Shown here: piece after piece, positions 3,779 to 19,700 of the stretch
Layout: each line of letters starts with the position of its first letter
How positions within the stretch are numbered: the first letter of the stretch is position 1
Virus record (IMG/VR): IMGVR_UViG_3300033521_000722
Location: 1 to 42,882 of that record
Direction: 5' to 3' (one strand)
Length of the DNA: 42,882 nucleotides
Source of the DNA: a virus
Lineage: Duplodnaviria; Caudoviricetes
Program-made: the position numbers and the translations under genes
Notes under the pieces: model-generated
What the model saw: the letters and a program-made list of their open reading frames with translations, nothing else
Told to the model about the DNA's origin: nothing
Databases searched by the model: none

Positions 3779-4492
3779 ATGGCAAGTTTGAATGATTGGA
3801 CGAAGAAATTTGGTCACAGTGTGCTTCAGAATCTGGTGAGCTATCTGCTTACCCACAACACCGCAACCCAAAGCTTTACCGTTGATTCCAATGCCAATGA
3901 TGTTGAGACCGACAATGCTGGTCTCGTGTTCATCAGTGGCATCCCGTATGTCACCGCTGCCGACACAGCATATGACATCAGTGGGGAATCACCCTATGCG
4001 GATTGGGCTGTGTCAACCTCTTACACCACGATGGGAACTGCGTCTGAGGTGACCGTGGACGGTAGGCACTTTGCTTGTATCTCCGCTCACACCTCTTCCT
4101 CTACCTCGAGTGGGTCTGCCAGTGACAAACCACTGTACGGCTCCAACTGGAGAACGTACTGGAGAGAGCTTGACTTTTGGGCTGAGAAGGCGGTTGGTGA
4201 CACGCTCACCAGCGGTGAGGTTGCTTACTACCTCGCTTGCTGCCTCTACGATGGGACGCTTCGGCTTTTCAAAGCGTACCAGTACGGTGGAGTGTTTGGC
4301 ACTGCTCATGCGTCTGCCACGGTGTGTATCCCTGCGTATGATGCTACCCGGTACTGCCCGGTTGGTCTTCTGAAGATCACCTCGGCTGGTGGTGGGTTTA
4401 TTGTTGGGACCACATCTACCGCTGGAGTATCTGTGTTCTCCGACATCATCGGCCCGGTCCTTCCCGATCCGATCTGCTTGGACAAAAACTAA
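3779..4492 (+). CDS. putative virion decoration protein with CBM5/12-like insert, paralog A
   Basis: AAGGAG RBS; W-x4-Y...DGRHFACISAHTS...W motif; alignable end to end with 4522..5214. Confidence 0.7.
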   Translation: MASLNDWTKKFGHSVLQNLVSYLLTHNTATQSFTVDSNANDVETDNAGLVFISGIPYVTAADTAYDISGESPYADWAVSTSYTTMGTASEVTVDGRHFACISAHTSSSTSSGSASDKPLYGSNWRTYWRELDFWAEKAVGDTLTSGEVAYYLACCLYDGTLRLFKAYQYGGVFGTAHASATVCIPAYDATRYCPVGLLKITSAGGGFIVGTTSTAGVSVFSDIIGPVLPDPICLDKN

Positions 4493-4521
4493 GGGCTAAT
4501 GGGTGAAAGGAGAAAATAACC

Positions 4522-5214
4522 ATGGCAAGTGTAAACAATTGGGAGAAGTTGTTCAGTTATAGATCGATGCAGAACCTGATGAGCTACCTGCTCACGCAGA
4601 ACTGTGCGTCTCAGGTTATTGCTGCTGATGTTGCTACCAACGACATTCAGAGCACTGGGACCAAGAGTGCGATCATCAACGGTATTCCGTATGTCCTCGC
4701 AGTTGACGATGCGTTTGATATCAGCGCAGAGGCTGCTTACAGCTTGTGGGCTACTGGTCAATCGTACACGACCAACTCGGAAGTGTACCATGTTGACCCT
4801 GATGGTGAAACTCGGCACTATGTCTGCATCCTGGCGCATACCTCGGCTGCTGCTGACGAGATCGAGGTTGGTGCGAACTGGGAAACGTACTGGAGATTGC
4901 TGCCTGTGTGGGCTACCACGGGAGATCTTGACAGCGTTGCTGATGGAGCTACCAAGTACTACCTTGTGTGTGCCCTGTCTGATGGTACGCTGAGAATCTT
5001 CAAAGCGTACAATGCTACCACGTTGGCTGTTGAAATCCCGGCATATGACCCCACTCGGTACGTTGCTGTTGCGCTTCTGAAGTATGCTAACAGCACGGGT
5101 GACACAGCTGCTGACGTGATTGGTGCAGCTACCTGTGATTGGGGCACTTATGGATCTTTTTACCAGCTTACGGGCTTTGTTATTCCTGACGTATCGCTGC
5201 TTGACAAGAACTAA
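4522..5214 (+). CDS. putative virion decoration protein with CBM5/12-like insert, paralog B
   Basis: AAGGAG RBS; WATGQSY...HYVCILAHTS...NWETYW; shares SYLLT, DGTLRxFKAY and LDKN with paralog A. Confidence 0.7.
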   Translation: MASVNNWEKLFSYRSMQNLMSYLLTQNCASQVIAADVATNDIQSTGTKSAIINGIPYVLAVDDAFDISAEAAYSLWATGQSYTTNSEVYHVDPDGETRHYVCILAHTSAAADEIEVGANWETYWRLLPVWATTGDLDSVADGATKYYLVCALSDGTLRIFKAYNATTLAVEIPAYDPTRYVAVALLKYANSTGDTAADVIGAATCDWGTYGSFYQLTGFVIPDVSLLDKN

Positions 5215-5229
5215 CAGGGAGGATTTGAC

Positions 5230-8200
5230 ATGGCAGATATGGAAACCTATTTGAGTCACCTCCCTTCAGCCATTGCCGACCCGCTGCGGAAATTGTTCCG
5301 CAGCGGAGCAACACTGGAGATCAGTGTTACTGGTACGGCAGCGGGAGGCACGGCAGCTACGGCTGCTGTTGCAACCACGGTGACCGTTGCAGACACTGCC
5401 TCGACTACGGCAAAGGTCTTGCTCGCTGAGGGCTCCACCGGGAACCTCGGTGTGAAGACGGATGCTGGGATCAGCTACAATGCCAACACGGGTGTGCTGA
5501 CCGCAACCGGGTTTTCTGGACCACTCACTGGTAATGTTACTGGTGATTGTTCTGGCAGCGCAGCTACGGCATCAAGTGCGTCAACTGCGTCTACAGCGAG
5601 TGTTGCTAGTACCATTGCAGTTGCGGACACAACGGACACCTCCTGTGTTGTCCTCCTTGCTGAGGATGCGACAGGAAATGTGGCAGCTAAGAGTGATGCT
5701 GGTCTGACATATAACGCCAGCACTGGTGTTCTTACAGCCACTGGTTTTTCTGGACCGCTGTCTGGAGCTGTAACCGGGAACGTAACCGGGGACTGTTCTG
5801 GAAATGCTGGGACCGCAACGTCTGCTACGAGTGCTGGAACAGCAGCTGTAGCGACAACGGTTACAGTAGCGGATACTACTGACACGAGCTGCTCAGTTAT
5901 TCTTGCTGAGGACTCAACTGGAAACGTTGGCATGAAGAGTGATGCAGGTATCACTTACAATGCTGGCACTGGAGTACTGACTGCGACAGGCTTTGCTGGA
6001 CCATTGACAGGGAATGTCACTGGGAAAGCGTCAGCTATCAATGAGGGCACAGTAGTTACAGCTGTGGCAGCTGCTGGTGTTATCACACCTCCTGCCAACC
6101 TCACTGAGGGTCACACTGTAGTCATAACCAATGGTGTTCTTACGGACACCTATGAGATCGTGTGTGATGGTGGTGGTGTTACCACTCCGGGGAACATAGA
6201 GCTGGATACGAAAGCCACCGCAGCTGCTGCTGCGGGTAGCGTAACTCCTCCTGCGAACCCGGTCAAAGGTGACACGTTCACTGTTGATGACGGGACCAAT
6301 GATGACACTTACGAGATCATCCCTGATGGCACAGCTCCGTCTGCTGGGAACATTGCTGTGGACACTTCTGGCTCAGCTGTTGCTGCGAGCAAGAACCTCA
6401 CAGTAGATGGTGTTGTTGTAGATGGTGAGACCGTCACTATCAATGGTGAAGTTTTTGAGGTTGATACTGACAGCTCAGTAACGGGTGGCAATACCGCTGT
6501 GGATGTGTCTGGTGGTTCAGCAGTGGCAGCTCAGGGTACATTGACTATTTCCGACAGCAGCACTGATGATGTTATAGACGGGGAGACTGTGACCCTTGGG
6601 TCTGGTGGTGCTGAGGAAGTGTACGAGTTTGATTGGGACAACTCTATAACTGGTGGGAACATCAAGGTTGATATCTCTGGCAAAGCGAGTATCGCAAAGG
6701 CCAAGGGTACATTGACTGTTTCCGCTGAACCTGTTCACGATGACACGTTTGATGTGGACAGTGACACTTATACTTTTACATTTGATGCAACGGAAACGGG
6801 TTCTGGATGGATAGAGCTGCATTCATGTGCCACTGCAACCCAGGCATATGCAGACTACCAGCTCATTGGGCTCCCCGCTGACGGTGACACAATCACCATC
6901 AACGGAAGGGATTATGAGTTTGACCCGAGCAATGATGGGATCGCTGGTGACGTTGAGTTTGACACGAATGGTGTCTCAACGGTTGACGGTGTACTCACGG
7001 TTATGGAAACGGCAATCAACGGTGATGGTTCTGCCGTTGTTACAGCTGCGAAAGACCTTGTGAACAACAAGATCCGTGTTACCTCAAAGCTGTACGGTAC
7101 GATTGGGAACTATGCTGTTTCTGACAGCTGTGCGAATGGTCAATGGACTCCAGAGACTGTTAGTGGTGGAAACATTACCACAGGTGTGGCTCCAACGACT
7201 GAGGAGATTGTTGACCAGATCGTGTCTGATTTTGATGGTACGACATGCACCTGTACGAAGAAGGATGCGGACCAAGTGTACTTTGAGTACGATGCTTATG
7301 GTACCGCTGGGAACGCAATTGTATTCACAGAGACTGCAACGGGTATCGGGGTGGACGGTGCTGGAACATTGGGCACAACTACGGCTGGTGCGGACTGCTC
7401 AAAAGAGGATGCAGCCACGGCACTCACAGCCAAGATAAACACGACTACAGCCAACCCCATTTCTGCAACGGACAACCTGGACGGGACCATGACAGTGGAG
7501 TACGATGTTCCCGGTGTACTCGGTGATTCTTTTGTTGCCACTGAGACGATGTCCAATGGTGCGTGGGATGGTGGTGGTACTCTTGGTGGGACTCAGGCAG
7601 GTGTGGATGCTACGAAGAGCGATTTCAAAACTGCGTTCCTTCTCATGACACCAACCGGGGTTACCCTCAGTGACGGTGGTGGGGATGTTATCACAGCGAC
7701 TGCGTCAACTGCTGGCACGGCTGGGAACAACATTTCGATTGCCGAGGCCATGGCGAATGGTGCTTGGGCTGGTGCTGCAACAAAGTTGTCTGGTGGCATT
7801 GATGCTACTCGGGCTGATGCTTGTGCTGCGATTGCGACAGCGTCAGCAGCTGGGACTGCCGATGTGGTGCTGGCAGATAATGCCGGGGCAAGTGTCACAG
7901 TAACCGCAGGTACGAAGGGTGTCATTGGCAATTCGTACACGCTGGCTGTTTCGGATGCAGTAAACTGGGCGAAGGTTGATCCATCAGGTGGACACGCTGG
8001 TACTTGTGCAGAAGCGTGTAGCACGTTGGAGACCGCAATAAATGGGTCTGGTACGCTGGCTATTACAGCGACTGACCACGGCAGCACTCACGTTGATATT
8101 GCGTCAGACGTGAAGGGTGTGATTGGAAACAGTATTGACACAACGGTGGCTACTGGTTGGACCAGGACTGATCTGACAGGTGGGGTTGATGGCACGGTTG

Positions 8201-8301
8201 GTACCAAGGGAGATATCCTACAGGATGCCAACTTTATTTACATCTGTACAGCCAACAACACGACTGCGGATAACAACTGGAAGAAGGTTGCCATTGCGTA
8301 A
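5230..8301 (+). CDS. long fibre/appendage protein (1023 aa) with tandem N-terminal repeats and nested domains
   Basis: G/T/A/D-rich; three copies of VADT..LAE..TGN..K(T/S)DAG..YNA.TGVLTATGF.GPL; C-terminal GDILQDANFIYIC...NWKKVA motif typical of phage fibres. Confidence 0.75.
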   Translation: MADMETYLSHLPSAIADPLRKLFRSGATLEISVTGTAAGGTAATAAVATTVTVADTASTTAKVLLAEGSTGNLGVKTDAGISYNANTGVLTATGFSGPLTGNVTGDCSGSAATASSASTASTASVASTIAVADTTDTSCVVLLAEDATGNVAAKSDAGLTYNASTGVLTATGFSGPLSGAVTGNVTGDCSGNAGTATSATSAGTAAVATTVTVADTTDTSCSVILAEDSTGNVGMKSDAGITYNAGTGVLTATGFAGPLTGNVTGKASAINEGTVVTAVAAAGVITPPANLTEGHTVVITNGVLTDTYEIVCDGGGVTTPGNIELDTKATAAAAAGSVTPPANPVKGDTFTVDDGTNDDTYEIIPDGTAPSAGNIAVDTSGSAVAASKNLTVDGVVVDGETVTINGEVFEVDTDSSVTGGNTAVDVSGGSAVAAQGTLTISDSSTDDVIDGETVTLGSGGAEEVYEFDWDNSITGGNIKVDISGKASIAKAKGTLTVSAEPVHDDTFDVDSDTYTFTFDATETGSGWIELHSCATATQAYADYQLIGLPADGDTITINGRDYEFDPSNDGIAGDVEFDTNGVSTVDGVLTVMETAINGDGSAVVTAAKDLVNNKIRVTSKLYGTIGNYAVSDSCANGQWTPETVSGGNITTGVAPTTEEIVDQIVSDFDGTTCTCTKKDADQVYFEYDAYGTAGNAIVFTETATGIGVDGAGTLGTTTAGADCSKEDAATALTAKINTTTANPISATDNLDGTMTVEYDVPGVLGDSFVATETMSNGAWDGGGTLGGTQAGVDATKSDFKTAFLLMTPTGVTLSDGGGDVITATASTAGTAGNNISIAEAMANGAWAGAATKLSGGIDATRADACAAIATASAAGTADVVLADNAGASVTVTAGTKGVIGNSYTLAVSDAVNWAKVDPSGGHAGTCAEACSTLETAINGSGTLAITATDHGSTHVDIASDVKGVIGNSIDTTVATGWTRTDLTGGVDGTVGTKGDILQDANFIYICTANNTTADNNWKKVAIA

Positions 8302-8350: not shown

Positions 8351-8821
8351 ATGTTTAAAGACGGGAGCAAGTCAGGGGGAAGACCGAAGGGCACTGAGAA
8401 CAAGAGATCTACTCATGTTCTGTATAAGCTTGAGCATGAGCATGACTTCAGTGTGATCGGAAAGATTGTGCAATTGTACAACGAGACTGAGCAGATCTAC
8501 AAACCCCTGTTTGAAAAAGTGCTAGATCTCATGGAGAGGAAGCAGCCCATCCAAGCTGTGTACAGCAGGGAGGACCGCAACTGGTCCGAAGGGCTGCGCC
8601 CAGCGGACTTTGAGCTGTTCAACAAAGTGAGAGGAGACCTTTGGGTCATCCTGGCAAAACTCCTTGGGTACACTTATCCGAAGCTGAAGACCCTCGAGGT
8701 TGACACTGGAAATTCTGATAAGGTCATTTTCAACATCAGCATTCCCAAGACAGGCTCACGGGGTATAGAGCTGAAGGACGTGGAACTGAGTGAGGACAAC
8801 TCTGAGGAAGTGATTCACTGA
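8351..8821 (+). CDS. terS: probable terminase small subunit (156 aa)
   Basis: Start moved to ATG 8351 (the track's 8312 start lies in the terminator); N-terminal SGGRPKGTENKRST and C-terminal LLGYTYPKLKTLEV are typical of TerS-like proteins. Confidence 0.65.
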   Translation: MFKDGSKSGGRPKGTENKRSTHVLYKLEHEHDFSVIGKIVQLYNETEQIYKPLFEKVLDLMERKQPIQAVYSREDRNWSEGLRPADFELFNKVRGDLWVILAKLLGYTYPKLKTLEVDTGNSDKVIFNISIPKTGSRGIELKDVELSEDNSEEVIH

Positions 8822-9861
8822 TGGGAGTTTCATTCAGGAGCCAAGCAGGGGTAAGGTACAGCGTACCGAGCACGGGTGTGTTTTGGTACGGTAATCTTAT
8901 TTCTCTATCTGCCAGCTCTGCGTGGAAGATTCTGAATGATGTAGACAAAGATACAGCCTGGAAGATCCTAAATGCTTATGGCAAAGACACGGCCTGGAGA
9001 ATTCTAGCGGGGTACGACAAAGACTTCAGCTGGAGTATCCTGAATGATTTAGCGAAAGACTTTGCATGGAGAATTCTCGGGGCAGTAACCCAGGACACTT
9101 CTTGGCGCATCAAGGCTGAGACAGCAGATGACTTCGCATGGAAAATCCTTGGTGGTTTAGCAAAAGATTTCTCCTGGAAGATTTTTGTAAGGGACGACAC
9201 AAATACCAGCTGGCGCATTCTGGATGCCATTACAAATGATACTGCCTGGAAGATACTAGGAGCCAGCACCAAGGACATCGCATGGAGAATCAAGACTGAC
9301 AGCTCTGATGATTTTGCGTGGAAGATACTCGCAGGTCTTGCTCAGTCCTATGCCTGGAAAATTTTAGGGAAGAGTGACACCGATACCGCTTGGAGAATCC
9401 TACGTGGATTAGGTAAGGACACCGCATGGAAGATTCTCGGTGGAGGTACCCTGGACACCAGCTGGAGGATTTTAGATCAGCTCCAGAAAGATTCTGCATG
9501 GAAGATTTTAACCGCTGGTACACAAGATGTTGCCTGGAGAATTGTTGCAGGTCTGATCAAGGATTCGTCCTGGAAGATACTCAATGCTGACGGGACAGAT
9601 ATCAGCTGGAGAATCAAAACAGATCTTGATAAGGATTCGGCTTGGAAGATTTTGAATTCCAGCCCTCTGAGTACTTCTTGGTATGTTGTTGGAGAGGGTG
9701 CAGACGATGAGGCTGGACGATATATAGCATTTGTTATTGAGTTCACAAAGACGGGATACACAGTGTACAGCACCTTCGATGCTTTGACTAAGGTGCTGAG
9801 TTTTACGGCTGATGAAATCCCAACATCATTTACTTCTTTGGACAATGATTATCAGGTGTAA
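8821..9861 (+). CDS. 12-aa Trp-repeat protein (346 aa), putative fibre/solenoid
   Basis: 21 tandem units of D-x-(A/S)-W-(K/R)-I-L-x5 plus one degenerate copy; TGATG coupling to terS. Confidence 0.75.
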   Translation: MGVSFRSQAGVRYSVPSTGVFWYGNLISLSASSAWKILNDVDKDTAWKILNAYGKDTAWRILAGYDKDFSWSILNDLAKDFAWRILGAVTQDTSWRIKAETADDFAWKILGGLAKDFSWKIFVRDDTNTSWRILDAITNDTAWKILGASTKDIAWRIKTDSSDDFAWKILAGLAQSYAWKILGKSDTDTAWRILRGLGKDTAWKILGGGTLDTSWRILDQLQKDSAWKILTAGTQDVAWRIVAGLIKDSSWKILNADGTDISWRIKTDLDKDSAWKILNSSPLSTSWYVVGEGADDEAGRYIAFVIEFTKTGYTVYSTFDALTKVLSFTADEIPTSFTSLDNDYQV

Positions 9862-9872
9862 GGAGAGATAAC

Positions 9873-10349
9873 ATGGCAGCGACCCTTGTATGGAGATTGA
9901 CGGGTGGAGCAGCGAACAGTGACCCTGCTGCGAGTTTAGGTGGAACGGCAAGTTCTGAGGCAGTGAGTGGAACTGCCATGAACAATGTCTTTGATAACGT
10001 GAGTGTTGCGGAAGCATCAGCGGGTGACACGGAGTACCGTGCACTTTCTCTGCACAACTCGGGTGATGCCACTGCGGAGAACATCGAACTCTACATCTCC
10101 ACGGTATCCCCAAGCACAGACACAACCGTTACAGTTGCATTGGACTCTGGTGTGCAGAGTGTCATAAATGAGAGCACTGCACCGAGTGCTCCATCGCTTT
10201 CCTTCTCGGAGCCACTGACAGGTTCGAGGCTGAGCATCAGTAACATCGCAGCAGCTGGAGCACAGAGGGTGTGGCTGAAGCGGGTGACTTCTGCTTCCGC
10301 TGGAAACTATGCCAATGACCTGATGACCATCACGGTTGAGTATGCATAA
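9873..10349 (+). CDS. putative virion structural protein (158 aa)
   Basis: AAGGAG RBS; GGAANSDPAASLGG...FDNVS..E...GDTEYR...VWLKR pattern recalled from phage structural regions. Confidence 0.7.
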   Translation: MAATLVWRLTGGAANSDPAASLGGTASSEAVSGTAMNNVFDNVSVAEASAGDTEYRALSLHNSGDATAENIELYISTVSPSTDTTVTVALDSGVQSVINESTAPSAPSLSFSEPLTGSRLSISNIAAAGAQRVWLKRVTSASAGNYANDLMTITVEYA

Positions 10350-11128
10350 TGTCTGACAATATTTTTTACCCGGCTACAGCTCTGACAGGTGGTGGTGACC
10401 ATGCCCTTGATGGGTATGATGGTGCCTCCCTTGTTGATGGTGATAGATCTCTCACAATCACTACAACTGAGATTTACATCCATCTCTTGGATGATGACTC
10501 TGGTGCTGCTGAATCTTCCCCGGCTGTTATTGCTCCAGATACCAACGCTGGAACAAAGCGATGGATATTGATCTCGAAGTTCAGGGTCAGTGAAACATCA
10601 TCTACCACATTCAAGATTGGTTCCTCTGGAACTATTGAATACAACCAATCGAGCCCTTCAGGGACAGATGTTCTCGGGTATAATGGATATCTCTATGCAA
10701 CCAGAGTATATAATCCTGTGTTTGCTGACTATGCAGACTTTAGGGACGTTGCAGACTTTGCACACTCTGGTCTTGTGTATATTGATAGCCAGCTGGGTGC
10801 TAAGATAGCAACCGAGAACTGTCAGAAGGGGATCATTGGTGTTGCGTCTGATACGTATGGTCACGCAGTGGGGATCAACCCGAAACACGACCAGGTACCC
10901 ATAGCCGTGTCAGGCTGGGTACTCGCATACGTTGACCGAGAGTACACACCGGGGACTGCTCTCACGTCACGCTCTTCGGGTATGCTCACCAAGATGAAAT
11001 GGTGGCAGAAGATCCTGTTCCCGGAACGAATTGTCGCAACGTACTCACGGAGAGAACCCATGGGGACGCTGCTTTACAATGATAAGTCTATCGTTGTTGA
11101 CGGTAGACATTGGGTCAAAGTTAACTAG
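10349..11128 (+). CDS. short fibre/spike-like protein with C-terminal peptidase G2/intramolecular-chaperone-like domain
   Basis: N-terminal LTGG..ALDG.DG..L.DGD...SGAAESSP..IAPD...KRWIL anchor-like module; RVYNPVFADYADF...GIIGVASD...VPIAVSGWV. Confidence 0.6.
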   Translation: MSDNIFYPATALTGGGDHALDGYDGASLVDGDRSLTITTTEIYIHLLDDDSGAAESSPAVIAPDTNAGTKRWILISKFRVSETSSTTFKIGSSGTIEYNQSSPSGTDVLGYNGYLYATRVYNPVFADYADFRDVADFAHSGLVYIDSQLGAKIATENCQKGIIGVASDTYGHAVGINPKHDQVPIAVSGWVLAYVDREYTPGTALTSRSSGMLTKMKWWQKILFPERIVATYSRREPMGTLLYNDKSIVVDGRHWVKVN

Positions 11129-11140
11129 GAGGGGGACATC

Positions 11141-12151
11141 ATGAATTTCTGGAGGGAGAAATCGTTGTGGTTGCCGTTGGCTCTGATTATTTTTTTCGAG
11201 TACATGATTCAGCGTGGGTTTGCAACGTTTGCTAAAGCACCACAGCTTGCAAGCCTCAACATCACGGATGCTCTGTCCGTCTATTTTCTAACGATGTCAT
11301 CTGTTGTCCTGATCGGTGGGATTCTTCTGGATAATTTTTCCTCAAGGAAACTACTGCTGGGTGCGACACTGATGGCGACCATAGGTCTGATAACCATACC
11401 CTATACCATTTGGGGATTTGGTTTGATCTTTGGTTCAGCATCTGCCTTACTCAAACTTGCACCCTTTACAGCTCCGTTGAAGCTGAAGGACGGTGAGGAT
11501 GCGTACAGGATAGCACCGCAAGCGAGTGCTAAGAACTTTGGTGGCGCATTCTTTTCTATTGTAATGGGCACACTCCTTCTCAGCTCCGGGCTGGCCTTGA
11601 GTATGACAGTGCTCGGGTTTATGTTTCTCGCAGTAGGCTTGTGGGCATATTACTCCTTACCTGATGACAAGGTTCAAGGCTGGAAGTGGAGCATCTTCAA
11701 AGATCTCGCCAAGGATAAGCTGTTCTGGTTGTTCATGCTCTACTTCTTTTTCATGAATGCGATCTACTATGTGGCTGTTGCCCAGCTGTACCCCTCGTTG
11801 GTTAAGACGGGTTGGAGCAAGCAGGGAGCCATATACCTTATCGCTGGGAGTTATGTGCTGGCTGGCATTCTGAGGTTCCAGTGGGGGAAAGCGATTGACG
11901 CTTCAAGCCAACGGCTCAAGATGATCTTGATGTTTGCTGGGAACGTCTGCATGGCAGCTCCGATCTTTTTTGCCAACACATACCCGATGGGCTCTTTGAT
12001 TATCTTCACGATCTTCTCTGCGATGAACACCCCGATCTATTGGGCGTATGCGAAAGCGCAGTGGGGTAGCAAGTATATATCCACAGTTATTGGCCTTGGC
12101 TTCGTTTCGATGTACCTTGGTGCCGGGTTGCTCTACGGGAAGTGGGTATGA
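11141..12151 (+). CDS. MFS-like membrane transporter (336 aa, compact)
   Basis: GGAGG RBS; about 11-12 hydrophobic segments; motif-A-like GILLDNFSSRKL and its second-half echo WGKAIDASSQR. Confidence 0.75.
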   Translation: MNFWREKSLWLPLALIIFFEYMIQRGFATFAKAPQLASLNITDALSVYFLTMSSVVLIGGILLDNFSSRKLLLGATLMATIGLITIPYTIWGFGLIFGSASALLKLAPFTAPLKLKDGEDAYRIAPQASAKNFGGAFFSIVMGTLLLSSGLALSMTVLGFMFLAVGLWAYYSLPDDKVQGWKWSIFKDLAKDKLFWLFMLYFFFMNAIYYVAVAQLYPSLVKTGWSKQGAIYLIAGSYVLAGILRFQWGKAIDASSQRLKMILMFAGNVCMAAPIFFANTYPMGSLIIFTIFSAMNTPIYWAYAKAQWGSKYISTVIGLGFVSMYLGAGLLYGKWV

Positions 12152-12930
12152 TTGTCAGCAATAACCTTGCAGAGATAGGACGGTTGGCACGGGAACTGCC
12201 ACAGCCTCTTGGGATATGGACAGTCCACACAAAGATTCATGCTGGGCACAGATATCTCTATGACAAGATTTCCAGAAGGTGCAACAGCATGGTGGGTGTG
12301 TACTTTCTGAACTGGCAGTATTGCAGGGCAATTATTGGTGGGGCAGAGCATATTGATCAGCTCCCCATTGATCTCGAGACAGTTCATGAGCTATGGGAGA
12401 AGTGTGATCTTGTCTGGATTATGGAAGGGACAGATCTCGGGCTTCCTCATGATGAGATACCAGAGAGACTTGCTAGAGCGATTGACCAGCTTCCAGACGA
12501 GAACATTCCAGAGTTTGTGAGGAATGACAAAGGGCAGATGGCAACACTCAGAACCTCCCAGGTTACCAGGGTGCCTCTTCTCACACACATCCCTGTTAGT
12601 GTCTGCGGGGGATCATTGAAGGATGCGTGGAGACCTGTTTATAATGTGTGGCACAGAGAGCAGTTTCCAAAGATAGTGTTGTTATGGGTTGACCCACTAA
12701 CAGATAAGTATGGCAATAGTTACTGCTCAAGCATGCCAGCGGAGATGGTAGCTCGGATAACCAAGCCCTTGCTGCTTCCCCACTTCAGAAGCATTGAAGA
12801 GGTTAGGGAGAACATTAAAGACATAGAGGGTCTGAGTGTCACTTACTTTGTGTATGACCCGATGATGGAGTATCTGTACGCACAGTTCACTGTTGGTGAC
12901 AGGTACTGGAACTTTGGAATTCCCTTATGA
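12148..12930 (+). CDS. divergent PanC-fold (pantoate--beta-alanine ligase-like) HIGH-motif adenylating enzyme 1
   Basis: IHAGH, VGVYFLNWQY, CDLVW, GSLKDAW and DPLTDKYGNSYCSS are collinear with PanC LHDGH, VSIFVNPMQF, VDLVF, GEKDFQ and [13 protein letters not shown]; ATGA-coupled start at 12148. Confidence 0.65.
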   Translation: MIVSNNLAEIGRLARELPQPLGIWTVHTKIHAGHRYLYDKISRRCNSMVGVYFLNWQYCRAIIGGAEHIDQLPIDLETVHELWEKCDLVWIMEGTDLGLPHDEIPERLARAIDQLPDENIPEFVRNDKGQMATLRTSQVTRVPLLTHIPVSVCGGSLKDAWRPVYNVWHREQFPKIVLLWVDPLTDKYGNSYCSSMPAEMVARITKPLLLPHFRSIEEVRENIKDIEGLSVTYFVYDPMMEYLYAQFTVGDRYWNFGIPL

Positions 12931-13838
12931 TTGTTACAACCACCTTATCACAGTTTGTGAGCAGTCTCCCACAGAACAAGCTTATTGGTAGCTGTGGGTA
13001 CTATCGTAAGAACACGGGTGGGCACACACCCGCACACGAGACTGTTATCACAGCTCAGCGCAATGCTGGTGCGGATTATCTATATGCGAGCTACTACGAG
13101 TTCCAGCCGTTGAAGAAAGCCATGGCTCAGGCACTGGGGTATTCTGATGATGACACAAGGACGGATGGTCCCTTTGATCAACAGTACTGTCTTGATTGGT
13201 GTGAGACCCACGGGATAGACTTGGTGCTTGTCCCGGACAGAGCGGACATGTTGAGCGTTTGGGCAAGCCTGGATAAGGCTGCTGCCAAAGCATGGATTGA
13301 AGGATGGTTTGGGAACACGGGGTATAGCCATCCTGATGCAGGTCGATTGATTTCGCTCAAGTACCAGATCTTCACAAACTATGTGTTCAAAGAGATCCTT
13401 GGTGTGCACATAAGTTTCAAGGCACAGAGTATTGTAAATGGGTACCTGGACTTTGCCTTCCTGGACTTCCTGCGGAGGGCTGGCTGGGTGGACAATGTGA
13501 TTACACTCCCGATTGTGTACAGACCTGATGGTCTTCCAGAGCAGTCACACTGGAGCAATTACTCAGCAGCACAGCTTGCGGTATTGGCTCAAGTGGTTCC
13601 CGCAATGGACACTGTTGGGTACAACAACATGGTAGATTTTCAGGCATGGTCTCAGGCCGTGAAAGCAGCTGTGGATGCCACGGGAGCTACGGTGAAAGAG
13701 TTACCAGGCCAAAAAAAGAACAGCCCCCCAATGACCCATATCTATAGCTTTTCATATGGGGCTCAAACACTGATTGAGTTGTACGTGATTCTTCCTGGCT
13801 CAACACAGGCTATTCTATTGACAAAGGTGCTGGCATGA
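12927..13838 (+). CDS. divergent PanC-fold protein 2
   Basis: Degenerate HIGH-like HTPAH, GIDLVLVP, and VITLPIVYRPDGLPEQSHWSNYSAAQ resembling PanC [26 protein letters not shown]. Confidence 0.6.
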   Translation: MIVTTTLSQFVSSLPQNKLIGSCGYYRKNTGGHTPAHETVITAQRNAGADYLYASYYEFQPLKKAMAQALGYSDDDTRTDGPFDQQYCLDWCETHGIDLVLVPDRADMLSVWASLDKAAAKAWIEGWFGNTGYSHPDAGRLISLKYQIFTNYVFKEILGVHISFKAQSIVNGYLDFAFLDFLRRAGWVDNVITLPIVYRPDGLPEQSHWSNYSAAQLAVLAQVVPAMDTVGYNNMVDFQAWSQAVKAAVDATGATVKELPGQKKNSPPMTHIYSFSYGAQTLIELYVILPGSTQAILLTKVLA

Positions 13839-15196
13839 GAGGATTGCTGAACGAATTTTTCAAGAATGATGAGAATGTTTCCATAGAGCTGTTTTCCGCT
13901 GGCTGGTGCAATCTCAACTGCAAGTACTGCTACATTCCAAAGGGGGACTACACCAAGGACGTTCACGCAAAGGTTCTCAAGAGAATCAAAGATGGTTCTC
14001 TGATAACAGAGATGAAGGAGCTGTTTGGTACCACACTCACACGCATATCCCATTGGGGTACCGAGCCAACCCTCACTGTCACACAGTTTGGAGATTTCTA
14101 TAAGCAGGTGGTTGAGGAGTTCCCTAACTTTGAAGGAATAATGTTGTCTTCAAATTTTATGACCAACCCGCAGAACATCATCACCTTTATCCGGGACATT
14201 TTCCCGAGGACGAAACCACTAGAGATAAAGGTTCAGATCTCTATTGATGGCCCAAGCTGGCTAACTGACAACAACAGAACGGGGGGATCGACTGAGCTGA
14301 TCATAAAAAATGCGACTGCGTTTCTTCAGGCTATCAAGGAGATGGACACTCCGCACACAGTACTCACCAATGTTAAATCGACAATGAGTGCTGAGGGAAT
14401 GAATATTCTGTCAGACCTTGAGAAGTGCCGTGAGTATTACCAGTTCTTTGATGATCTGCTTCGGTCTTGGGAGCCTCTAGCAAGAAAGGGACTTGTTATT
14501 CCGAACATGATCAACCCGACCATTGTTGTTCCCTACGCTTATACCAAGCAAGATGGTATCAACTTTGATAAGGTGTTTGTAAACCAACTTGCTCTTGATG
14601 GGGAATATGAGTTTGCAAAGCCATACTGTTATTATGATGGGATGTTCCGCAAAAGAATGGTTACGTCCCAGGAATACTTTGTGAAGGCAAGAATGTTTCT
14701 TTGTTCTGCCGGGAGAAACTCTCATGCACTGACAGAGACACCCGGTAAGCTCGCAACATGTCACCGGGGATTCTACATGGACAGCCAGGAATACTATGAT
14801 GCTCTCGGGAACAGCCCGGATGAGATCACTAAAGAAGGGCTGGATGCAAAGAGAACACAGTTACTTGGTGAGAAGGTCATGTGTGATTACACGGACAGAA
14901 AAGAGCGAGTGAAGTTTGTGTACAGGAACAGAATGATTCATGACTTTGCAAAGATGCAGTCAACTTATGGTGTGAGCCTCTCACGGGAGTTAGCTGAAGC
15001 AGGACAGATCTCAGCATGCTACAAAGACCCAAGGTGGGCACAGCTTCTCCACATGATGACCCAGTTGCCAAGGTGTCATTTAGATGATGTTGTTATTTCT
15101 GGAAGTGGTCTTGTTCAAGGTTCATTTTACTACAGGTTGTTTGGAAACGGGTTTGTTGAAAGAATAATTGAAAGGTATGTCAATGGACTTCAATGA
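13835..15196 (+). CDS. radical SAM enzyme 1 with partial SPASM/twitch-like extension
   Basis: CNLNCKYC; WGTEPT; ISIDGP; CSAG...TCHR; lacks the CxxC-x5-C-x3-C block. Confidence 0.9.
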   Translation: MRGLLNEFFKNDENVSIELFSAGWCNLNCKYCYIPKGDYTKDVHAKVLKRIKDGSLITEMKELFGTTLTRISHWGTEPTLTVTQFGDFYKQVVEEFPNFEGIMLSSNFMTNPQNIITFIRDIFPRTKPLEIKVQISIDGPSWLTDNNRTGGSTELIIKNATAFLQAIKEMDTPHTVLTNVKSTMSAEGMNILSDLEKCREYYQFFDDLLRSWEPLARKGLVIPNMINPTIVVPYAYTKQDGINFDKVFVNQLALDGEYEFAKPYCYYDGMFRKRMVTSQEYFVKARMFLCSAGRNSHALTETPGKLATCHRGFYMDSQEYYDALGNSPDEITKEGLDAKRTQLLGEKVMCDYTDRKERVKFVYRNRMIHDFAKMQSTYGVSLSRELAEAGQISACYKDPRWAQLLHMMTQLPRCHLDDVVISGSGLVQGSFYYRLFGNGFVERIIERYVNGLQ

Positions 15197-15635
15197 GCAT
15201 TTTGTAAAAGCAAGAAAGTATTTTGATGACACGGAGTCTCTTTACACTGTAGGGGACAAGGCGAAGAAAATTTTTCTTACAGCTCTGAAGTCAATGGAGA
15301 TTGATCTGAGCAAGGAGAGCACCTGTGGTGATCGGAAAGAGATTGGCAAAGCCCTCCAGATCATGAGAGAGATTGTTTTGTTCAAAAAACACGGGGAGCT
15401 ATTTCTGGATTTCTGTCGCACATTTCTGGATATTACCTGGAACTGGAATAGCTGTGTAGGTAAGAAGGAAAATTTGAATCTGTCAATTCACTTGCTCCTT
15501 CGGCACATCAACAGCGTTCTATCATATGATGATCTTCTCAATGCCGTAGAGACGGTTGCCAATAAGCTTGATGGGACAAAGTGGGAACCACCATCATTTG
15601 AATTGGCTGGGCATTATTTTGAAATGGTGAAGTAA
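15183..15635 (+). CDS. small helical rSAM-associated protein 1 (150 aa)
   Basis: Likely start ATG 15183 (GAAAGG upstream); TWNWN and WEPPSF motifs shared with 19227..19700. Confidence 0.75.
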   Translation: MDFNEHFVKARKYFDDTESLYTVGDKAKKIFLTALKSMEIDLSKESTCGDRKEIGKALQIMREIVLFKKHGELFLDFCRTFLDITWNWNSCVGKKENLNLSIHLLLRHINSVLSYDDLLNAVETVANKLDGTKWEPPSFELAGHYFEMVK

Positions 15636-16807
15636 TGGGATACGTCTGGACTACCCCTCCCGATAGCGCAGCAGATCCTATCACAGCTGTCTCCATCAAC
15701 GAGATCAAGACGAATGAGGACGACATAGCTGGTGATCTGTCTGTTGTCCTTACGTGGAATGAACTTGATGTCACGCAGGGGACAACGAAAATCTCAAAAG
15801 CCCAATTTGACGAGATGCGGGATAACGCTGACACGCTGGATGACAACAACACTTGCACGTCAGACAACGCTGTTCAAGATCTTGCGGTTGACACGGGGGA
15901 CGACACCGCTGTGAATGCGGGGGAGGATTCAACCGTTGATGCTGGGAATGACCTCACCGTTAACGCTGATGATGATACCACAGTTGACTCAGGTGACGAT
16001 GTGACAGTCTATGCGGACAAGGACACTACAGTGGATTCTGGAGACGATGTTACAGTTAACGCAGACCAAGACTCCTCTGTAGATTCCGCAGATGACGTGA
16101 CTGTCTACGCAGACAAAGACACAACAGTGGACTCAAGTGATGATGTTACTGTCAATGCTGATGAGGACTCCTCTGTGGAATCAGCAGATGATGTGTCTGT
16201 ATATGCAGACAAGGATACAACAGTAGATTCGGGAGATGATGTCACCGTCAACGCAGATGATGACACAGCAGTGGACTCGGGAAATGATGTGACAGTCAAT
16301 AACCCAGCAGACACGACATATAATGCTGATGATGATACAACCATCAATGCAGATGATGATACAACTGTGGATGCAGACAAGGACAACACAATAAACGCTG
16401 ATGATGATACGACTGTGGATGCAGGGGATGATGTCACAGTGTACGCAGACAAGGATACCACGGTTGATTCAGGGGACGATGTTACAGTAAATGCAGATGA
16501 GTACACCTCTGTCGATACCGGGGATGACAATACTGTTTGGGCAGACAAAGATACTACCGTTGACACAGGGGATGATGTGACGGTGAATGCAGATGATGAC
16601 ACTACGGTTGACAGCGGAGAAAACACCACAGCGGATACAACGGATGACTCCTCAAACAACGCTGACGATGATGGAACCGTAGACGCAGATAAAGACAACA
16701 CGATTGACGCTGACAAAGATAATACGATCAATGCCACCAACCAGACAGGGTACGATAGTGACCAGCATGGCACGTATAATTCTTCGCAGAACTCAGGGGT
16801 GAAGTAA
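15635..16807 (+). CDS. Asp-rich repeat protein 1 (390 aa), candidate modification substrate
   Basis: Two copies of a leader-like motif, then 8/16-aa repeats such as DDVTVYADKDTTVDSG; TAATG-coupled at both ends. Confidence 0.8.
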   Translation: MGYVWTTPPDSAADPITAVSINEIKTNEDDIAGDLSVVLTWNELDVTQGTTKISKAQFDEMRDNADTLDDNNTCTSDNAVQDLAVDTGDDTAVNAGEDSTVDAGNDLTVNADDDTTVDSGDDVTVYADKDTTVDSGDDVTVNADQDSSVDSADDVTVYADKDTTVDSSDDVTVNADEDSSVESADDVSVYADKDTTVDSGDDVTVNADDDTAVDSGNDVTVNNPADTTYNADDDTTINADDDTTVDADKDNTINADDDTTVDAGDDVTVYADKDTTVDSGDDVTVNADEYTSVDTGDDNTVWADKDTTVDTGDDVTVNADDDTTVDSGENTTADTTDDSSNNADDDGTVDADKDNTIDADKDNTINATNQTGYDSDQHGTYNSSQNSGVK

Positions 16808-17913
16808 TGGCTTTTATCTGGTCTTCACTATCTCAAGGTGACAAAATCACGTTTGCTTTCCTGGACGAAATCAGGGACAACGTGGATTCTATCAAGGACA
16901 CCCTTGCAAACAAAACGTACCACGCATCTGTGGACAACACAGCAGATGCATCCATGGACTCAGGGGAAGACAGCTCAGCGGACTCTTCGGAAGATGATAC
17001 AGCAGATGCTACGCAGGACAATACTGTTGATGTTGCGCAGGACGACACTGCTGACGCAACAAAGAACGTCACTGTTGATGCAAGCCAAGATGACACCGCA
17101 GACGCTACAAAAAACGTGTCTGTAGATGCCTCTCAAGATGACACCGCAGATGCAACTAAAAACGTGACAGTGGACGCAAGCCAAGATGACACTGCTGATG
17201 CTACAAATAATGTATCAGTAGAGGCAGCAGAAGATGACACAGCTGACGCTACAAAGAATGTAACAGTGGATGCATCTCAGGACGATACGGCTGACGCAAC
17301 ACAAGATAATACTGTGGACGCTACTCAGAATGATACTGCTGATGCAACCAAGGACAATGCGGTTGACCTTGCTGAGGATGACACAGTTGATGCAACCCAA
17401 GACAATACAGTAGATGCTGATGAAGACGTTACTATTGATTTAGCAAAGGACAACACGGTAGATGCTGCTGAGAATGACACTGCTGATGCGACCAAGAACA
17501 ACACCGTGGACGCTGCGCAGGATGATACGGCAGATGTATCCAATGATGAGACAGTAAATGCTTCTGATAATTTCCTGGCAGAAACAACCAGGAATGTAAG
17601 TGTGGACGCATCTCAGAACATTACAGCTGATGGTGCTAACGATGTTACTGTTGATGCAGCTCAGGATGATTCACAGAATGCATCAGACGATGTGACAGTT
17701 GACACGGGGGAAAACAACACCAACGATGCGGACAAAGACAACACCGTTGATGCCGATAAAGACAATACCATTGATGCGACAAAGAACAATACTGCTGAGG
17801 CAGCGAATGATGTAGGGTATGATGGTACTCTCCATGGTTCGGATAATGCTGCTAATTACTCAAACAACACAAACAACGCAAATAATGCGGACTTTGCGGT
17901 TTGCTACAAGTAA
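16807..17913 (+). CDS. Asp/Asn-rich repeat protein 2 (368 aa), candidate modification substrate
   Basis: One leader-like motif, then 8/16-aa repeats such as DDTADATKNVTVDASQ. Confidence 0.8.
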   Translation: MAFIWSSLSQGDKITFAFLDEIRDNVDSIKDTLANKTYHASVDNTADASMDSGEDSSADSSEDDTADATQDNTVDVAQDDTADATKNVTVDASQDDTADATKNVSVDASQDDTADATKNVTVDASQDDTADATNNVSVEAAEDDTADATKNVTVDASQDDTADATQDNTVDATQNDTADATKDNAVDLAEDDTVDATQDNTVDADEDVTIDLAKDNTVDAAENDTADATKNNTVDAAQDDTADVSNDETVNASDNFLAETTRNVSVDASQNITADGANDVTVDAAQDDSQNASDDVTVDTGENNTNDADKDNTVDADKDNTIDATKNNTAEAANDVGYDGTLHGSDNAANYSNNTNNANNADFAVCYK

Positions 17914-17922
17914 AGGAACACG

Positions 17923-19230
17923 ATGAATCAGAACGATCTCTTAGTTGAAAGTTTCTTGAATCGCACTTTTTTCAAGGCTTGGAAAAGCCCTACTGACGAG
18001 GCTTTCAACAACTACAGCCACCTAGAGGTTCAGCTCAGTGGTGAGTGTGATCTTCGGTGCAAGTACTGTTACTTAGCAAAATTCAAGAAGGATTTGTACC
18101 CGGCTACGATTGGGCACAAGGAAGATGTGCTGCATAACCTGGACATCCTAATGGCTTGGCTTGAAGAGAACAAGATGTACCCTGTCTTCGAGATCTTTTC
18201 TGGTGAGCCTTTTGCTAAGGACGTAGGGTATGAGGCTGCGGATAAGATCCTTGACTTCTATGGGAGGAATGGATTGAAGCCAATGCTGTCCACTCCAACA
18301 AACATGTCATTCCTTTTCGATGAGGAAAAGACAGAGAGGATGGAGGGACTCCTGGCAAAGGCAGAGAATTTGGGTATTGGCTTTCATCTCAGTGCATCTG
18401 TAGATGGAAAGTTTTGTGAGGAGAATCGACCTTTCAGGGATGGGAGAAAATATACTGATGATTACTACGACAAACTTTTTAACTTTGCTCAGAAGCATTC
18501 TGTTGGCTTCCATCCTATGGTCTATAGCAATAACATTGAGAGGTGGAAAGAAAATTTTCTGTGGTTTCAGGAGATGTTCAAGAGATACGGAATCAGTCCG
18601 TTGAAGCTTTATCTTCTGGAAGTTCGCAATAAAGAGTGGTCCAGGCAACAGCTGAAGGACTTCTATGATTTCTGGAAGTTTGTGATGAGGTGGATAGTTG
18701 ACTTTGCTCCTGTCAAGAAAGAAGATCTACCCAAGTGGTGTCACCAGCATAAGCCCTTCAATGTTACTACCTTGTGGGGGACGGTAGGTAGAGGGATGGG
18801 TTGCTCAGTACAGTCAACAGTACAGCTCAGGGTTGGAGACCTGACAGCCTCTGTTTGTCATCGTTGTGCGTACAAGTCAACCAACCTCTGGAAGTTTGCA
18901 GTGGAGAACGACAAGATAGTGGGCATCAAGGCAATTAACCCGGAGCTGTTGATTGCTATGGAGACTATCCACACAAGAACAATGCCACAGTGTGAGAGCT
19001 GCTTTGTTGGTCACTTCTGCACAGGGCAGTGCCTTGGGTCAATGTTTGAAGTGAACCAAGATCCGTTTATGGTAATACCAACTGTGTGCGCCTTGGAGCA
19101 TATCAAGGTTGCAGCAACATTTGATGGGCTAAAGGAGAAGGGTGTGCTGGCTTACTTTTATGATTGGTGCAACCCGGAGAAGAAGATTGTGGTTGACCAG
19201 TATCTGGAAAGATTCATGGGGGGAAAATGA
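17923..19230 (+). CDS. radical SAM/SPASM enzyme 2
   Basis: CDLRCKYC; FSGEPF; ASVDG; GCSVQ...VCHR...CESC-x5-C-x3-C...C, a full SPASM cysteine pattern. Confidence 0.92.
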   Translation: MNQNDLLVESFLNRTFFKAWKSPTDEAFNNYSHLEVQLSGECDLRCKYCYLAKFKKDLYPATIGHKEDVLHNLDILMAWLEENKMYPVFEIFSGEPFAKDVGYEAADKILDFYGRNGLKPMLSTPTNMSFLFDEEKTERMEGLLAKAENLGIGFHLSASVDGKFCEENRPFRDGRKYTDDYYDKLFNFAQKHSVGFHPMVYSNNIERWKENFLWFQEMFKRYGISPLKLYLLEVRNKEWSRQQLKDFYDFWKFVMRWIVDFAPVKKEDLPKWCHQHKPFNVTTLWGTVGRGMGCSVQSTVQLRVGDLTASVCHRCAYKSTNLWKFAVENDKIVGIKAINPELLIAMETIHTRTMPQCESCFVGHFCTGQCLGSMFEVNQDPFMVIPTVCALEHIKVAATFDGLKEKGVLAYFYDWCNPEKKIVVDQYLERFMGGK

Positions 19231-19700
19231 ACTTTGAAACTGTGAAGAAAGTTCTTAGCAAGGGTAATGGGAATATTCTTTCTCCTGGTGTAGCCACTCA
19301 GGTGGAAGTGATATCCAAGGTAATGATAGAGGATCTCGAATTGAGCCCACCTTCTCAGCTTGCTTCTGAGGACAGGGTCTTCGAGGCACTCACAGCTGTG
19401 TCTGATGCATTCATGAGCAAGGGGTTCGACAAGAATGGTGAGGCTGTGATTGAGGCTTTTGTGCTCCTTACGTATAACTGGAATGAGAATGTTTACAAGT
19501 CAGACATACTCGGTACCTTTGCTAGGAGCATGAAGAAACTGATCGACAGCTACAAAGTCAACAGGAAAGTGTTCCGGGTTATGAGAGAGACACTCATAAG
19601 AGACATGTCCCTCAAGAATTGGGTTCAACCATCAATCAATATCACCAAGGAATACTTGAGCCAACTCCTAGAGGAGACAAACAATGGCAATGGATTTTGA
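19227..19700 (+). CDS. small helical rSAM-associated protein 2 (157 aa)
   Basis: ATGA-coupled to rSAM2; TYNWN and WVQPSI motifs; paralog of 15183..15635. Confidence 0.75.
   Translation: MNFETVKKVLSKGNGNILSPGVATQVEVISKVMIEDLELSPPSQLASEDRVFEALTAVSDAFMSKGFDKNGEAVIEAFVLLTYNWNENVYKSDILGTFARSMKKLIDSYKVNRKVFRVMRETLIRDMSLKNWVQPSINITKEYLSQLLEETNNGNGF

Follow-up and report, generated by a model that had tools for sequence, protein, structure and literature searches.

The window analysed here, that is, the whole stretch of DNA under study, is a virus record of 42,882 bases (IMG/VR IMGVR_UViG_3300033521_000722; Duplodnaviria, Caudoviricetes) in which all listed genes lie on the + strand. It contains two adjacent genes for long repeat proteins, R1 (chain A, 390 aa; 15635..16807) and R2 (chain B, 368 aa; 16807..17913), flanked by genes for a pair of enzymes of the radical S-adenosylmethionine (rSAM) type, rSAM1 (13835..15196) and rSAM2 (17923..19230), and for two helper proteins described as helical, H1 (15168..15635) and H2 (19227..19700), one after each rSAM gene. 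R1 is composed of two head repeats, a junction cysteine (Cys74) and a core of approximately 317 residues with a four-residue register; R2 has one head repeat, Asn35 at the position usually occupied by Cys in homologues, and a core of approximately 334 residues. As judged from sequence and gene linkage, R1 and R2 are very probably substrates of the flanking rSAM enzymes, and the reading we favour, with a probability of roughly 0.6, is that they form an enzyme-modified, two-chain virion appendage, in which the chains would pair 1:1 in a thin fibre.

The head repeats were located with a profile. Among the open reading frames (ORFs) of the locus, it matched residues 4-34 (15644..15736; E 1.4e-7) and 40-71 (15752..15847; E 1.6e-10) of R1 and residues 4-32 (16816..16902; E 3.5e-9) of R2, and the three motifs quoted in the initial annotation were found where it had placed them, at 15647-15727, 15755-15838 and 16819-16893. 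The R1 core (15854..16804) contains 96 Asp and Glu, 76 Ser and Thr and a single Cys. Each of the two chains has one Cys, each core has 8-10 aromatic residues, and His occurs once in R1 and twice in R2. Asp or Asn occupies 69 of 80 register positions in R1 (counted from Cys74) and 75 of 84 in R2 (counted from Asn35), with zero phase slips across approximately 320 residues; the corresponding fractions, 0.86 and 0.89, compare with 0.56 and 0.53 for the best phase in 10,000 shuffles. The register had been described as strict: it is indeed unbroken and far above the shuffled sequences, but Tyr, Glu, Trp, Gln and His also fill it. Autocorrelation in R1 and R2 is highest at 16 and 32 (0.57-0.61), followed by 8 (0.35-0.38). 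The codons differ among all 8 copies of DDVTV and all 9 copies of DTADAT, and R2 differs at three sites, all third-position and synonymous, from a contig of the same study but of another run, in agreement with the remark that codons vary between units; a contig from a second run is identical over 15599-17332, and both runs are possibly the window's own source. Both proteins carry DADKDNTI and GYDxxxHG, as first reported, yet this shared tail is private to the phage: GYDxxxHG and DADKDN are present in 0 of 76 homologous chains and a terminal Lys in only 3 of 76, and the tail was rejected as a family signal. The final VK of R1 overlaps the GGTGAAGTAATG stop/start junction, the same junction as in the upstream helper gene.

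rSAM2 (435 aa) has a CxxxCxxC motif at residues 42-49 and seven invariant, SPASM-spaced Cys residues (294, 312, 357, 360, 366, 370 and 389), the combination that defines a radical SAM/SPASM enzyme. rSAM1 (453 aa), a distant paralogue of rSAM2 without an N-terminal extension, keeps only the CxxxCxxC motif (25-32) and three invariant C-terminal Cys residues (290, 309 and 414). With CxxxCxxC at residue 25 in rSAM1 and 42 in rSAM2, there is no room for an N-terminal recognition element (RRE) of the kind that serves peptides made on the ribosome and modified after translation (RiPPs). The closest structural relative of the enzymes by sequence is PDB 5wgg, and no named maturase model came anywhere near its cut-off with either window enzyme. 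SPASM-type maturases perform oxidative chemistry. H1 (approximately 155 aa) and H2 (157 aa) have no family match and are paralogues (22% identity, E 1e-5); for H2, the Atlas offered no usable family.

The association of repeat proteins with these enzymes extends well beyond the window. rSAM2 has at least 673 relatives. In scans that covered viral, metagenome and genome collections, at least 103 loci scored above 250 bits, of which at least 87 are non-redundant after 16 duplicates were taken out by hand. The counts that follow are among the loci listed, and truncated loci make those for accessory genes lower bounds. The family includes environmental and stop-codon-recoded phages. rSAM1 is present in all 67 loci having at least 1.5 kb upstream of rSAM2, all 47 loci with full flanks contain both enzymes and a repeat-bearing partner, and the helper family is present in 65 of the 87. 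Head-bearing repeat proteins were recognized by script in 39 of the 47; the remaining 8 have repeat partners by eye, namely divergent or truncated pairs (L002, L018, L091), a locus under code 15 (L028), a set of three genes (L015) and Hxs-type precursors (L162, L171, L174). The same linkage is seen when the enzymes are left out of the search. A DNA pattern for the head motif, which was built from enzyme-linked loci and is therefore biased to that subfamily, gave 34 matches, of which 19 were discarded as chance; a pair of rSAM genes lies within 7 kb of 14 of the 15 true matches, the contig of the remaining one ending too soon, and 7 of the 14 loci are absent from all enzyme searches. The check proposed in the initial annotation, of which cores and neighbours the motif finds, returned D/N-type cores and also Cys-rich cores beside other rSAM sets. 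The latter belong to sister phage systems (L046, L050, L051, L054, L063, L065, L066, L069, L070 and L101) with a three-repeat head and Cys-rich repeats, which adjoin two or three other rSAM genes; several end in or just before a Peptidase_S74 chaperone.

Another finding is that the enzymes can be met with a different N-terminus. At L162:7137-10837, L171:6794-10867 and L174:6907-10768, all Patescibacteria-labelled, the enzyme trio accompanies HxsA-type, head-less precursors, which it follows among HxsD/HxsB/HxsC-like genes. These precursors are chimeras of an HxsA-type leader with HxS repeats and/or a four-residue-register tail, and that of L174 joins an Hxs leader to a core in the same four-residue register. 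Because the register core stays beside the trio under the Hxs leader, L174 is the best sign that the enzymes would follow the core rather than the head.

The two chains appear to be matched in length. Over 39 complete A/B pairs, a set that excludes duplicates as well as any pair in which a chain is truncated, fused or Hint-inserted, and in which a few head ends were set by hand, the core lengths of A and B (20-334 residues) correlate with r=0.93, and 23 of the 39 pairs agree within 8 residues, compared to a shuffle mean of 4.6 and a maximum of 13. Close relatives shift both cores together (for example, +23/+24, -8/-8 and +8/+9), and nearest-neighbour length contrasts have the same sign in 13 of 14 informative cases. 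The window cores (317 and 334) differ by 17 residues, and the offsets of their common tail landmarks agree to within 4 residues. This core-length match points to a two-chain filament.

The register is likewise a property of the family. Of 78 chains, 68 have a junction Cys after the last head repeat; the register begins with this Cys, and 195 of 219 segments are in phase with it. The register position is occupied by Asp (24%), Asn (22%) and Tyr (15%), as well as by Lys, His, Leu and Arg, with Cys at 2.7%, and the family tetrad reads large (D/N/Y), small, small, large (Y, H, D, V). The same Cys-started register was found in 31 two-copy library proteins, which partly overlap the listed loci; a second phage clade also uses periods of 5, 8, 9 and 11. 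In four single-chain precursors (L022, L031, L095 and L100), the C-terminus echoes the head-core junction sequence by eye, suggesting an out-and-back hairpin. One B-type chain (L080:69-929) has a Hint-like module following a short core.

The head motif occurs far beyond these loci, and its copy number changes how it is to be understood. A profile of 33 positions matched 3,223 library proteins; among the best 150, in a ranking that favours multi-copy proteins and thus under-counts one-copy forms, three copies are present in 110, two in 36 and more than three in 4, of which one is a false positive, so that in spite of the ranking the copy number levels off at three. P0128 was rejected as a HAMP-domain false positive. 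In 79 of the 110 three-copy proteins, nothing follows the third copy. Enzyme-linked loci also total three head copies, arranged 2+1 in A/B pairs, 1+1+1 in the three tandem one-copy genes of L015, and all in one chain in the second phage clade and, by eye, in the Cys-rich sister systems; in each of the whole records G001 and G004, the head matches number exactly three. The intact triple domain is predicted as three helices (pLDDT 89, pTM 0.81), and R1-type heads align to it with a probability of 98.4% and gut-phage single-chain heads with 83%. The motif had been taken for the leader of a leader-plus-core precursor. Part of this stands, since R1 and R2 are very probably rSAM substrates in which the N-terminal motif is conserved and the core varies; on the other hand, the motif comes in threes, is predicted to fold and in most three-copy proteins has no core after it, which does not support a cleavable leader. 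A better reading, given the predicted fold, is that the motif makes up a third of a three-helix domain. Prediction of the complex of R1(1-138) with R2(1-99) gave 0.31, 0.31 and 0.20 against a mark of 0.32, which speaks neither for nor against binding.

A three-repeat domain of approximately 105 aa, which has no Pfam family, stands at the C-terminus of P0123, P0140, P0152, P0188, P0257 and some 75 other proteins. In 83 longer triple-head proteins, the domains outside the head are for the most part Ig, FN3, BACON, cadherin-like, FG-GAP, RHS and peptidase (S8), which are typical of exported bacterial proteins and suggest that the domain is used like an anchor there. A fold search with the triple head gave a best Z of 6.7, 5.9 for BARA, and 4.0 and 3.8 for SLH (the SLH values lying within background), with no clear solved match; no SLH Pfam match was found in the 83 proteins. 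The viral structure library yielded unnamed proteins including rudivirus ORFs (best E 0.065), PDB sequences gave no relevant match, and no PHROG was common to more than 7 of 37 heads. The nearest Atlas clusters are Acidobacteriota and Myxococcota hypotheticals. A triple-head protein scan returned nothing, and genome samples gave 0 of 301, 1 of 401 and 1 of 401; the one new match in these samples lies in a short frame with no rSAM gene within the 2.4 kb read.

The genes around the cassette place it in a virion context. The order is fibre gene, major facilitator superfamily (MFS) transporter, two accessory ORFs, rSAM1, H1, R1, R2, rSAM2, H2 and a 120-aa ORF, downstream of which lie the terminase, portal and N4-gp56-type capsid genes. 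The fibre-type gene (10349..11128) ends in a phi29 gp12-like intramolecular chaperone domain (E 4e-4 to PDB 6qz9), and a gp12-type chaperone fibre gene lies near the cassette in 19 of the 87 loci; the B chain of L005 ends, by eye, in an S74-start-like motif. It is this tail-module position, with terminase, portal and capsid genes and with gp12-type and S74 chaperones, that points to the virion. The MFS gene (11141..12151) has a homologue only in L004 among L001-L114, and the 262-aa ORF with an HxGH-like motif by eye (12142..12930) has one homologue, also in L004; this ORF and the pantoate-beta-alanine-ligase (PanC)-like ORF (12927..13838; E 7e-6 to PDB 3mxt), whose relatives are present in at least 4 of the 87 loci, are occasional accessories. 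A GT4-type glycosyltransferase is present in at least about 21 of the 87 and is fused to rSAM1 in two (L076:399-2894 and L151:2466-4877), hinting at glycosylation of Ser/Thr-rich tetrad positions in some members. In one phage, two separate A/B pairs flank a single enzyme set (L123:6150-13572).

Farther from the cassette, a 346-aa ORF (8821-9861, +) carries a 12-residue Trp repeat (D-x-A/S-W-K/R-I-L) over approximately 250 residues, with no convincing family and no homologue among L001-L114. At 3779-8301 (+), two similar-looking ORFs of 237 and 230 aa and, after them, a 1023-aa Ala/Thr/Gly-rich repeat protein have no family matches; all three are probably additional proteins of fibre or decoration type. 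At 35722-42882 (+), a frame stays open for at least 2387 aa and runs off the contig end. A promoter and terminator scan of the window gave chance level only.

Based on the results presented above, the following course may be proposed for the modified two-chain appendage. The two repeats of R1 and the one repeat of R2 would complete a pseudo-threefold three-helix domain; the completed head would set both cores side by side in register and likely anchor the fibre. rSAM1, rSAM2 and the helper or helpers would then work along the core, starting at the head-core junction Cys/Asn. In the last step, the weakest of the three, oxidative cross-linking would be keyed to the register, first through a PapB-like link from Cys to Asx(i+4) and then through a heteroatom or carbon link at Cys-free positions, which would stiffen the filament. 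Within this model, register-wide oxidative links are tentatively placed first; periodic C-alpha epimerisation is unlikely, a reaction confined to the junction Cys rather more so, and other chemistry the least probable. It is also possible, if somewhat doubtful, that the radical-SAM pair rewrites the backbone of, or cross-links, dozens of Cys-free, every-fourth positions nearly regardless of side chain, on a virion filament with a 2+1 head, and that bacteria re-used the enzyme trio on other leaders; this would amount to a processive way of modifying proteins that is new, and to virus particles matured in the manner of RiPPs.

Several observations weigh against a modified virion appendage. With one Cys and almost no aromatics per chain, thioether or cyclophane formation cannot cover the core, and for the rest of the register this leaves a chemistry not yet described, epimerisation or no change. 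The broad residue use at the register position fits side-chain-blind chemistry or a purely structural role equally. In 16 of the 39 pairs, the two cores are more than 8 residues apart in length, the largest gap being 69, and concerted evolution of neighbouring repeats could account for part of the similarity. The under-counting of one-copy head forms noted above tells in the same direction, and cultured phage records gave no rSAM2 match, nor any triple-head match. Furthermore, a full A/B, rSAM and helper cassette is found among housekeeping genes on two Parcubacteria-labelled contigs (L154:4033-10939 and L158:4224-10931), where it sits behind tatC and a twin-arginine-like ORF and is possibly a domesticated surface filament; the virion is thus not always its destination.

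These cellular copies bear directly on the reading that the pair, once modified, works on or within the host envelope, in superinfection exclusion or as a cell-surface filament, rather than on the virion, much as the rSAM-matured HxsA does, which PMC13128918 describes as a periplasmic anti-phage effector. The triple head ends exported Ig, FN3, BACON, RHS and S8 proteins and shows a weak, background-level fold similarity to SLH anchors (Z 4.0), and chimeras with Hxs systems exist. However, R1 and R2 begin directly with the head and have no signal-like stretch, the window cassette lies inside a morphogenesis operon with overlapping stop and start codons, and copies in cells are rare (a sample of 400 more genomes of that phylum had 0), so we consider an envelope role unlikely. 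The opposite view takes up the alternative of the initial annotation, an unmodified beta-helical or Ca2+-binding fibre like gp5/VgrG, and adds that the rSAM enzymes would act elsewhere or on the junction Cys only. It draws on matches of R1 above the cut-offs for DUF2345 (52.8 bits) and Gp5_trimer_C (41.2 bits), models on which low-complexity Val/Asp repeats can score by composition, on a match of R1 to PHROG 9992 "baseplate", and on the acidic share of the cores (approximately 30% and 26%). The AlphaFold2 monomer of unmodified R1 is also a beta-solenoid with 8-residue strand repeats (pLDDT 80-91 over about 110-220) that resembles CsgA (Z 23.6, rmsd 8.0), UspA1 (Z 18.7) and an antifreeze solenoid that depends on Ca2+ (Z 18.3); a Foldseek search of this model against the PDB gave nothing at E<=0.001. 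The Pfam and monomer results likewise count against the favoured reading. R2, however, has no gp5/VgrG match, the family profile has a period of 4 residues and shows little contrast at 8, the motif-only scan found no such core without the enzymes, and the L174 core remains beside them after the head swap. The alternative has real Pfam support for R1 only, it leaves the enzyme linkage and length match unexplained, and an unmodified fibre seems improbable.

A classic RiPP, in which the N-terminal motif would be removed as a leader and the core released as a diffusible product, is about as improbable. Such systems share with this one a conserved N-terminus before a hypervariable core, here from 20 to over 500 residues, next to a maturase; the best family matches of both enzymes are peptide maturases, an MFS transporter gene lies upstream, and some His-Xaa-Ser precursor clusters have taken up the trio. 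But the motif comes in threes, is folded and terminates exported core-less proteins, and a released peptide has no need of co-varying core lengths. Moreover, family scans found no peptidase family among the cassette genes (a host protease may act instead), the MFS gene recurs in only one other locus, and the trio also stands beside head-less HxsA-type precursors.

As the substrate lacks the Cys and aromatic residues needed by the characterised enzymes compared, the reaction is probably new and side-chain tolerant, and a side-chain-tolerant reaction would serve peptide engineering. In addition, thousands of proteins carry the three-repeat head, a domain that has no name. The short natural pairs L082 and L093, with cores of 30-40 residues, make the system testable in E. 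coli. In the literature searched, which took in few subscription papers and no supplements (the Crp supplementary data could list relatives), the system is not described; rSAM maturation of whole proteins is known in a few cases (CrpA, HxsA), and the searches found none on a virus particle.

Among known systems, PapB (NF047865) is the best NCBIfam match of both enzymes. The PapB motif is CX3D, and the junction Cys is similarly in register with Asp/Asn four residues on. Unlike in PapB, the window enzymes score only 52.3 and 38.7 bits against a cut-off of 340, and the single Cys per chain makes repeated Cys-X3-Asp thioethers impossible. The CXXX-repeat rSAM system (TIGR04115, TIGR04119; PF27846) has a four-residue register starting at Cys, and among named Atlas clusters, a viral one rich in PF27846 lies closest to the triple head (0.75, a lead only); its models give the enzymes 23 and 14.3 bits against a cut-off of 350, and the register here is D/N/Y/H with Cys at 2.7%. 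T4 gp5/VgrG (PF22178, PF10106) shares the 8-residue strand repeat with Val, and R1 passes both cut-offs, whereas R2 has no match, an OB-fold/VgrG body is absent, and two different chains with constant enzyme neighbours are involved. In TvgA/TvgB, according to PMC9062424, a tetrapeptide TVGG repeat is modified repeatedly by a SPASM-type rSAM enzyme, and TV pairs are common in R1 and R2; TvgB-type valine cyclopropanation was rejected as a family-wide reaction, with Val at only 14% of that position. The Thermus "rSAM module" was also set aside, since PMC11437467 describes one rSAM gene with DUF483, a different gene set.

Two further systems mature whole proteins. In HXS HxsABCD (PMC13128918), the maturation of a repeat protein that keeps a folded anchoring domain takes two rSAM enzymes and a small partner; the system differs in its three-residue HxS repeats, bacterial defence role and single chain. 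Neither window enzyme exceeds 22 bits on HxsB/HxsC models, no Hxs model comes near its cut-off, and R1 and R2 lack HxS repeats. CrpA/CrpC of Methanococcus voltae (PMC13692751) combine a seven-Cys SPASM rSAM enzyme with neighbouring large repeat proteins that share an N-terminal region; the enzyme cross-links a 29-kDa protein, the product is the modified protein, and the substrate is a predicted beta-helix. CrpA is Cys-rich and CrpC has an RRE, whereas the window has nearly Cys-free cores, a helper alongside two enzymes that lack an N-terminal extension, and a phage host. The TIGR04463 score is 21.6 against a cut-off of 525. In general, the cassette works like the CrpA/CrpC, HXS and CXXX-repeat systems and lies outside the membership definition of each.

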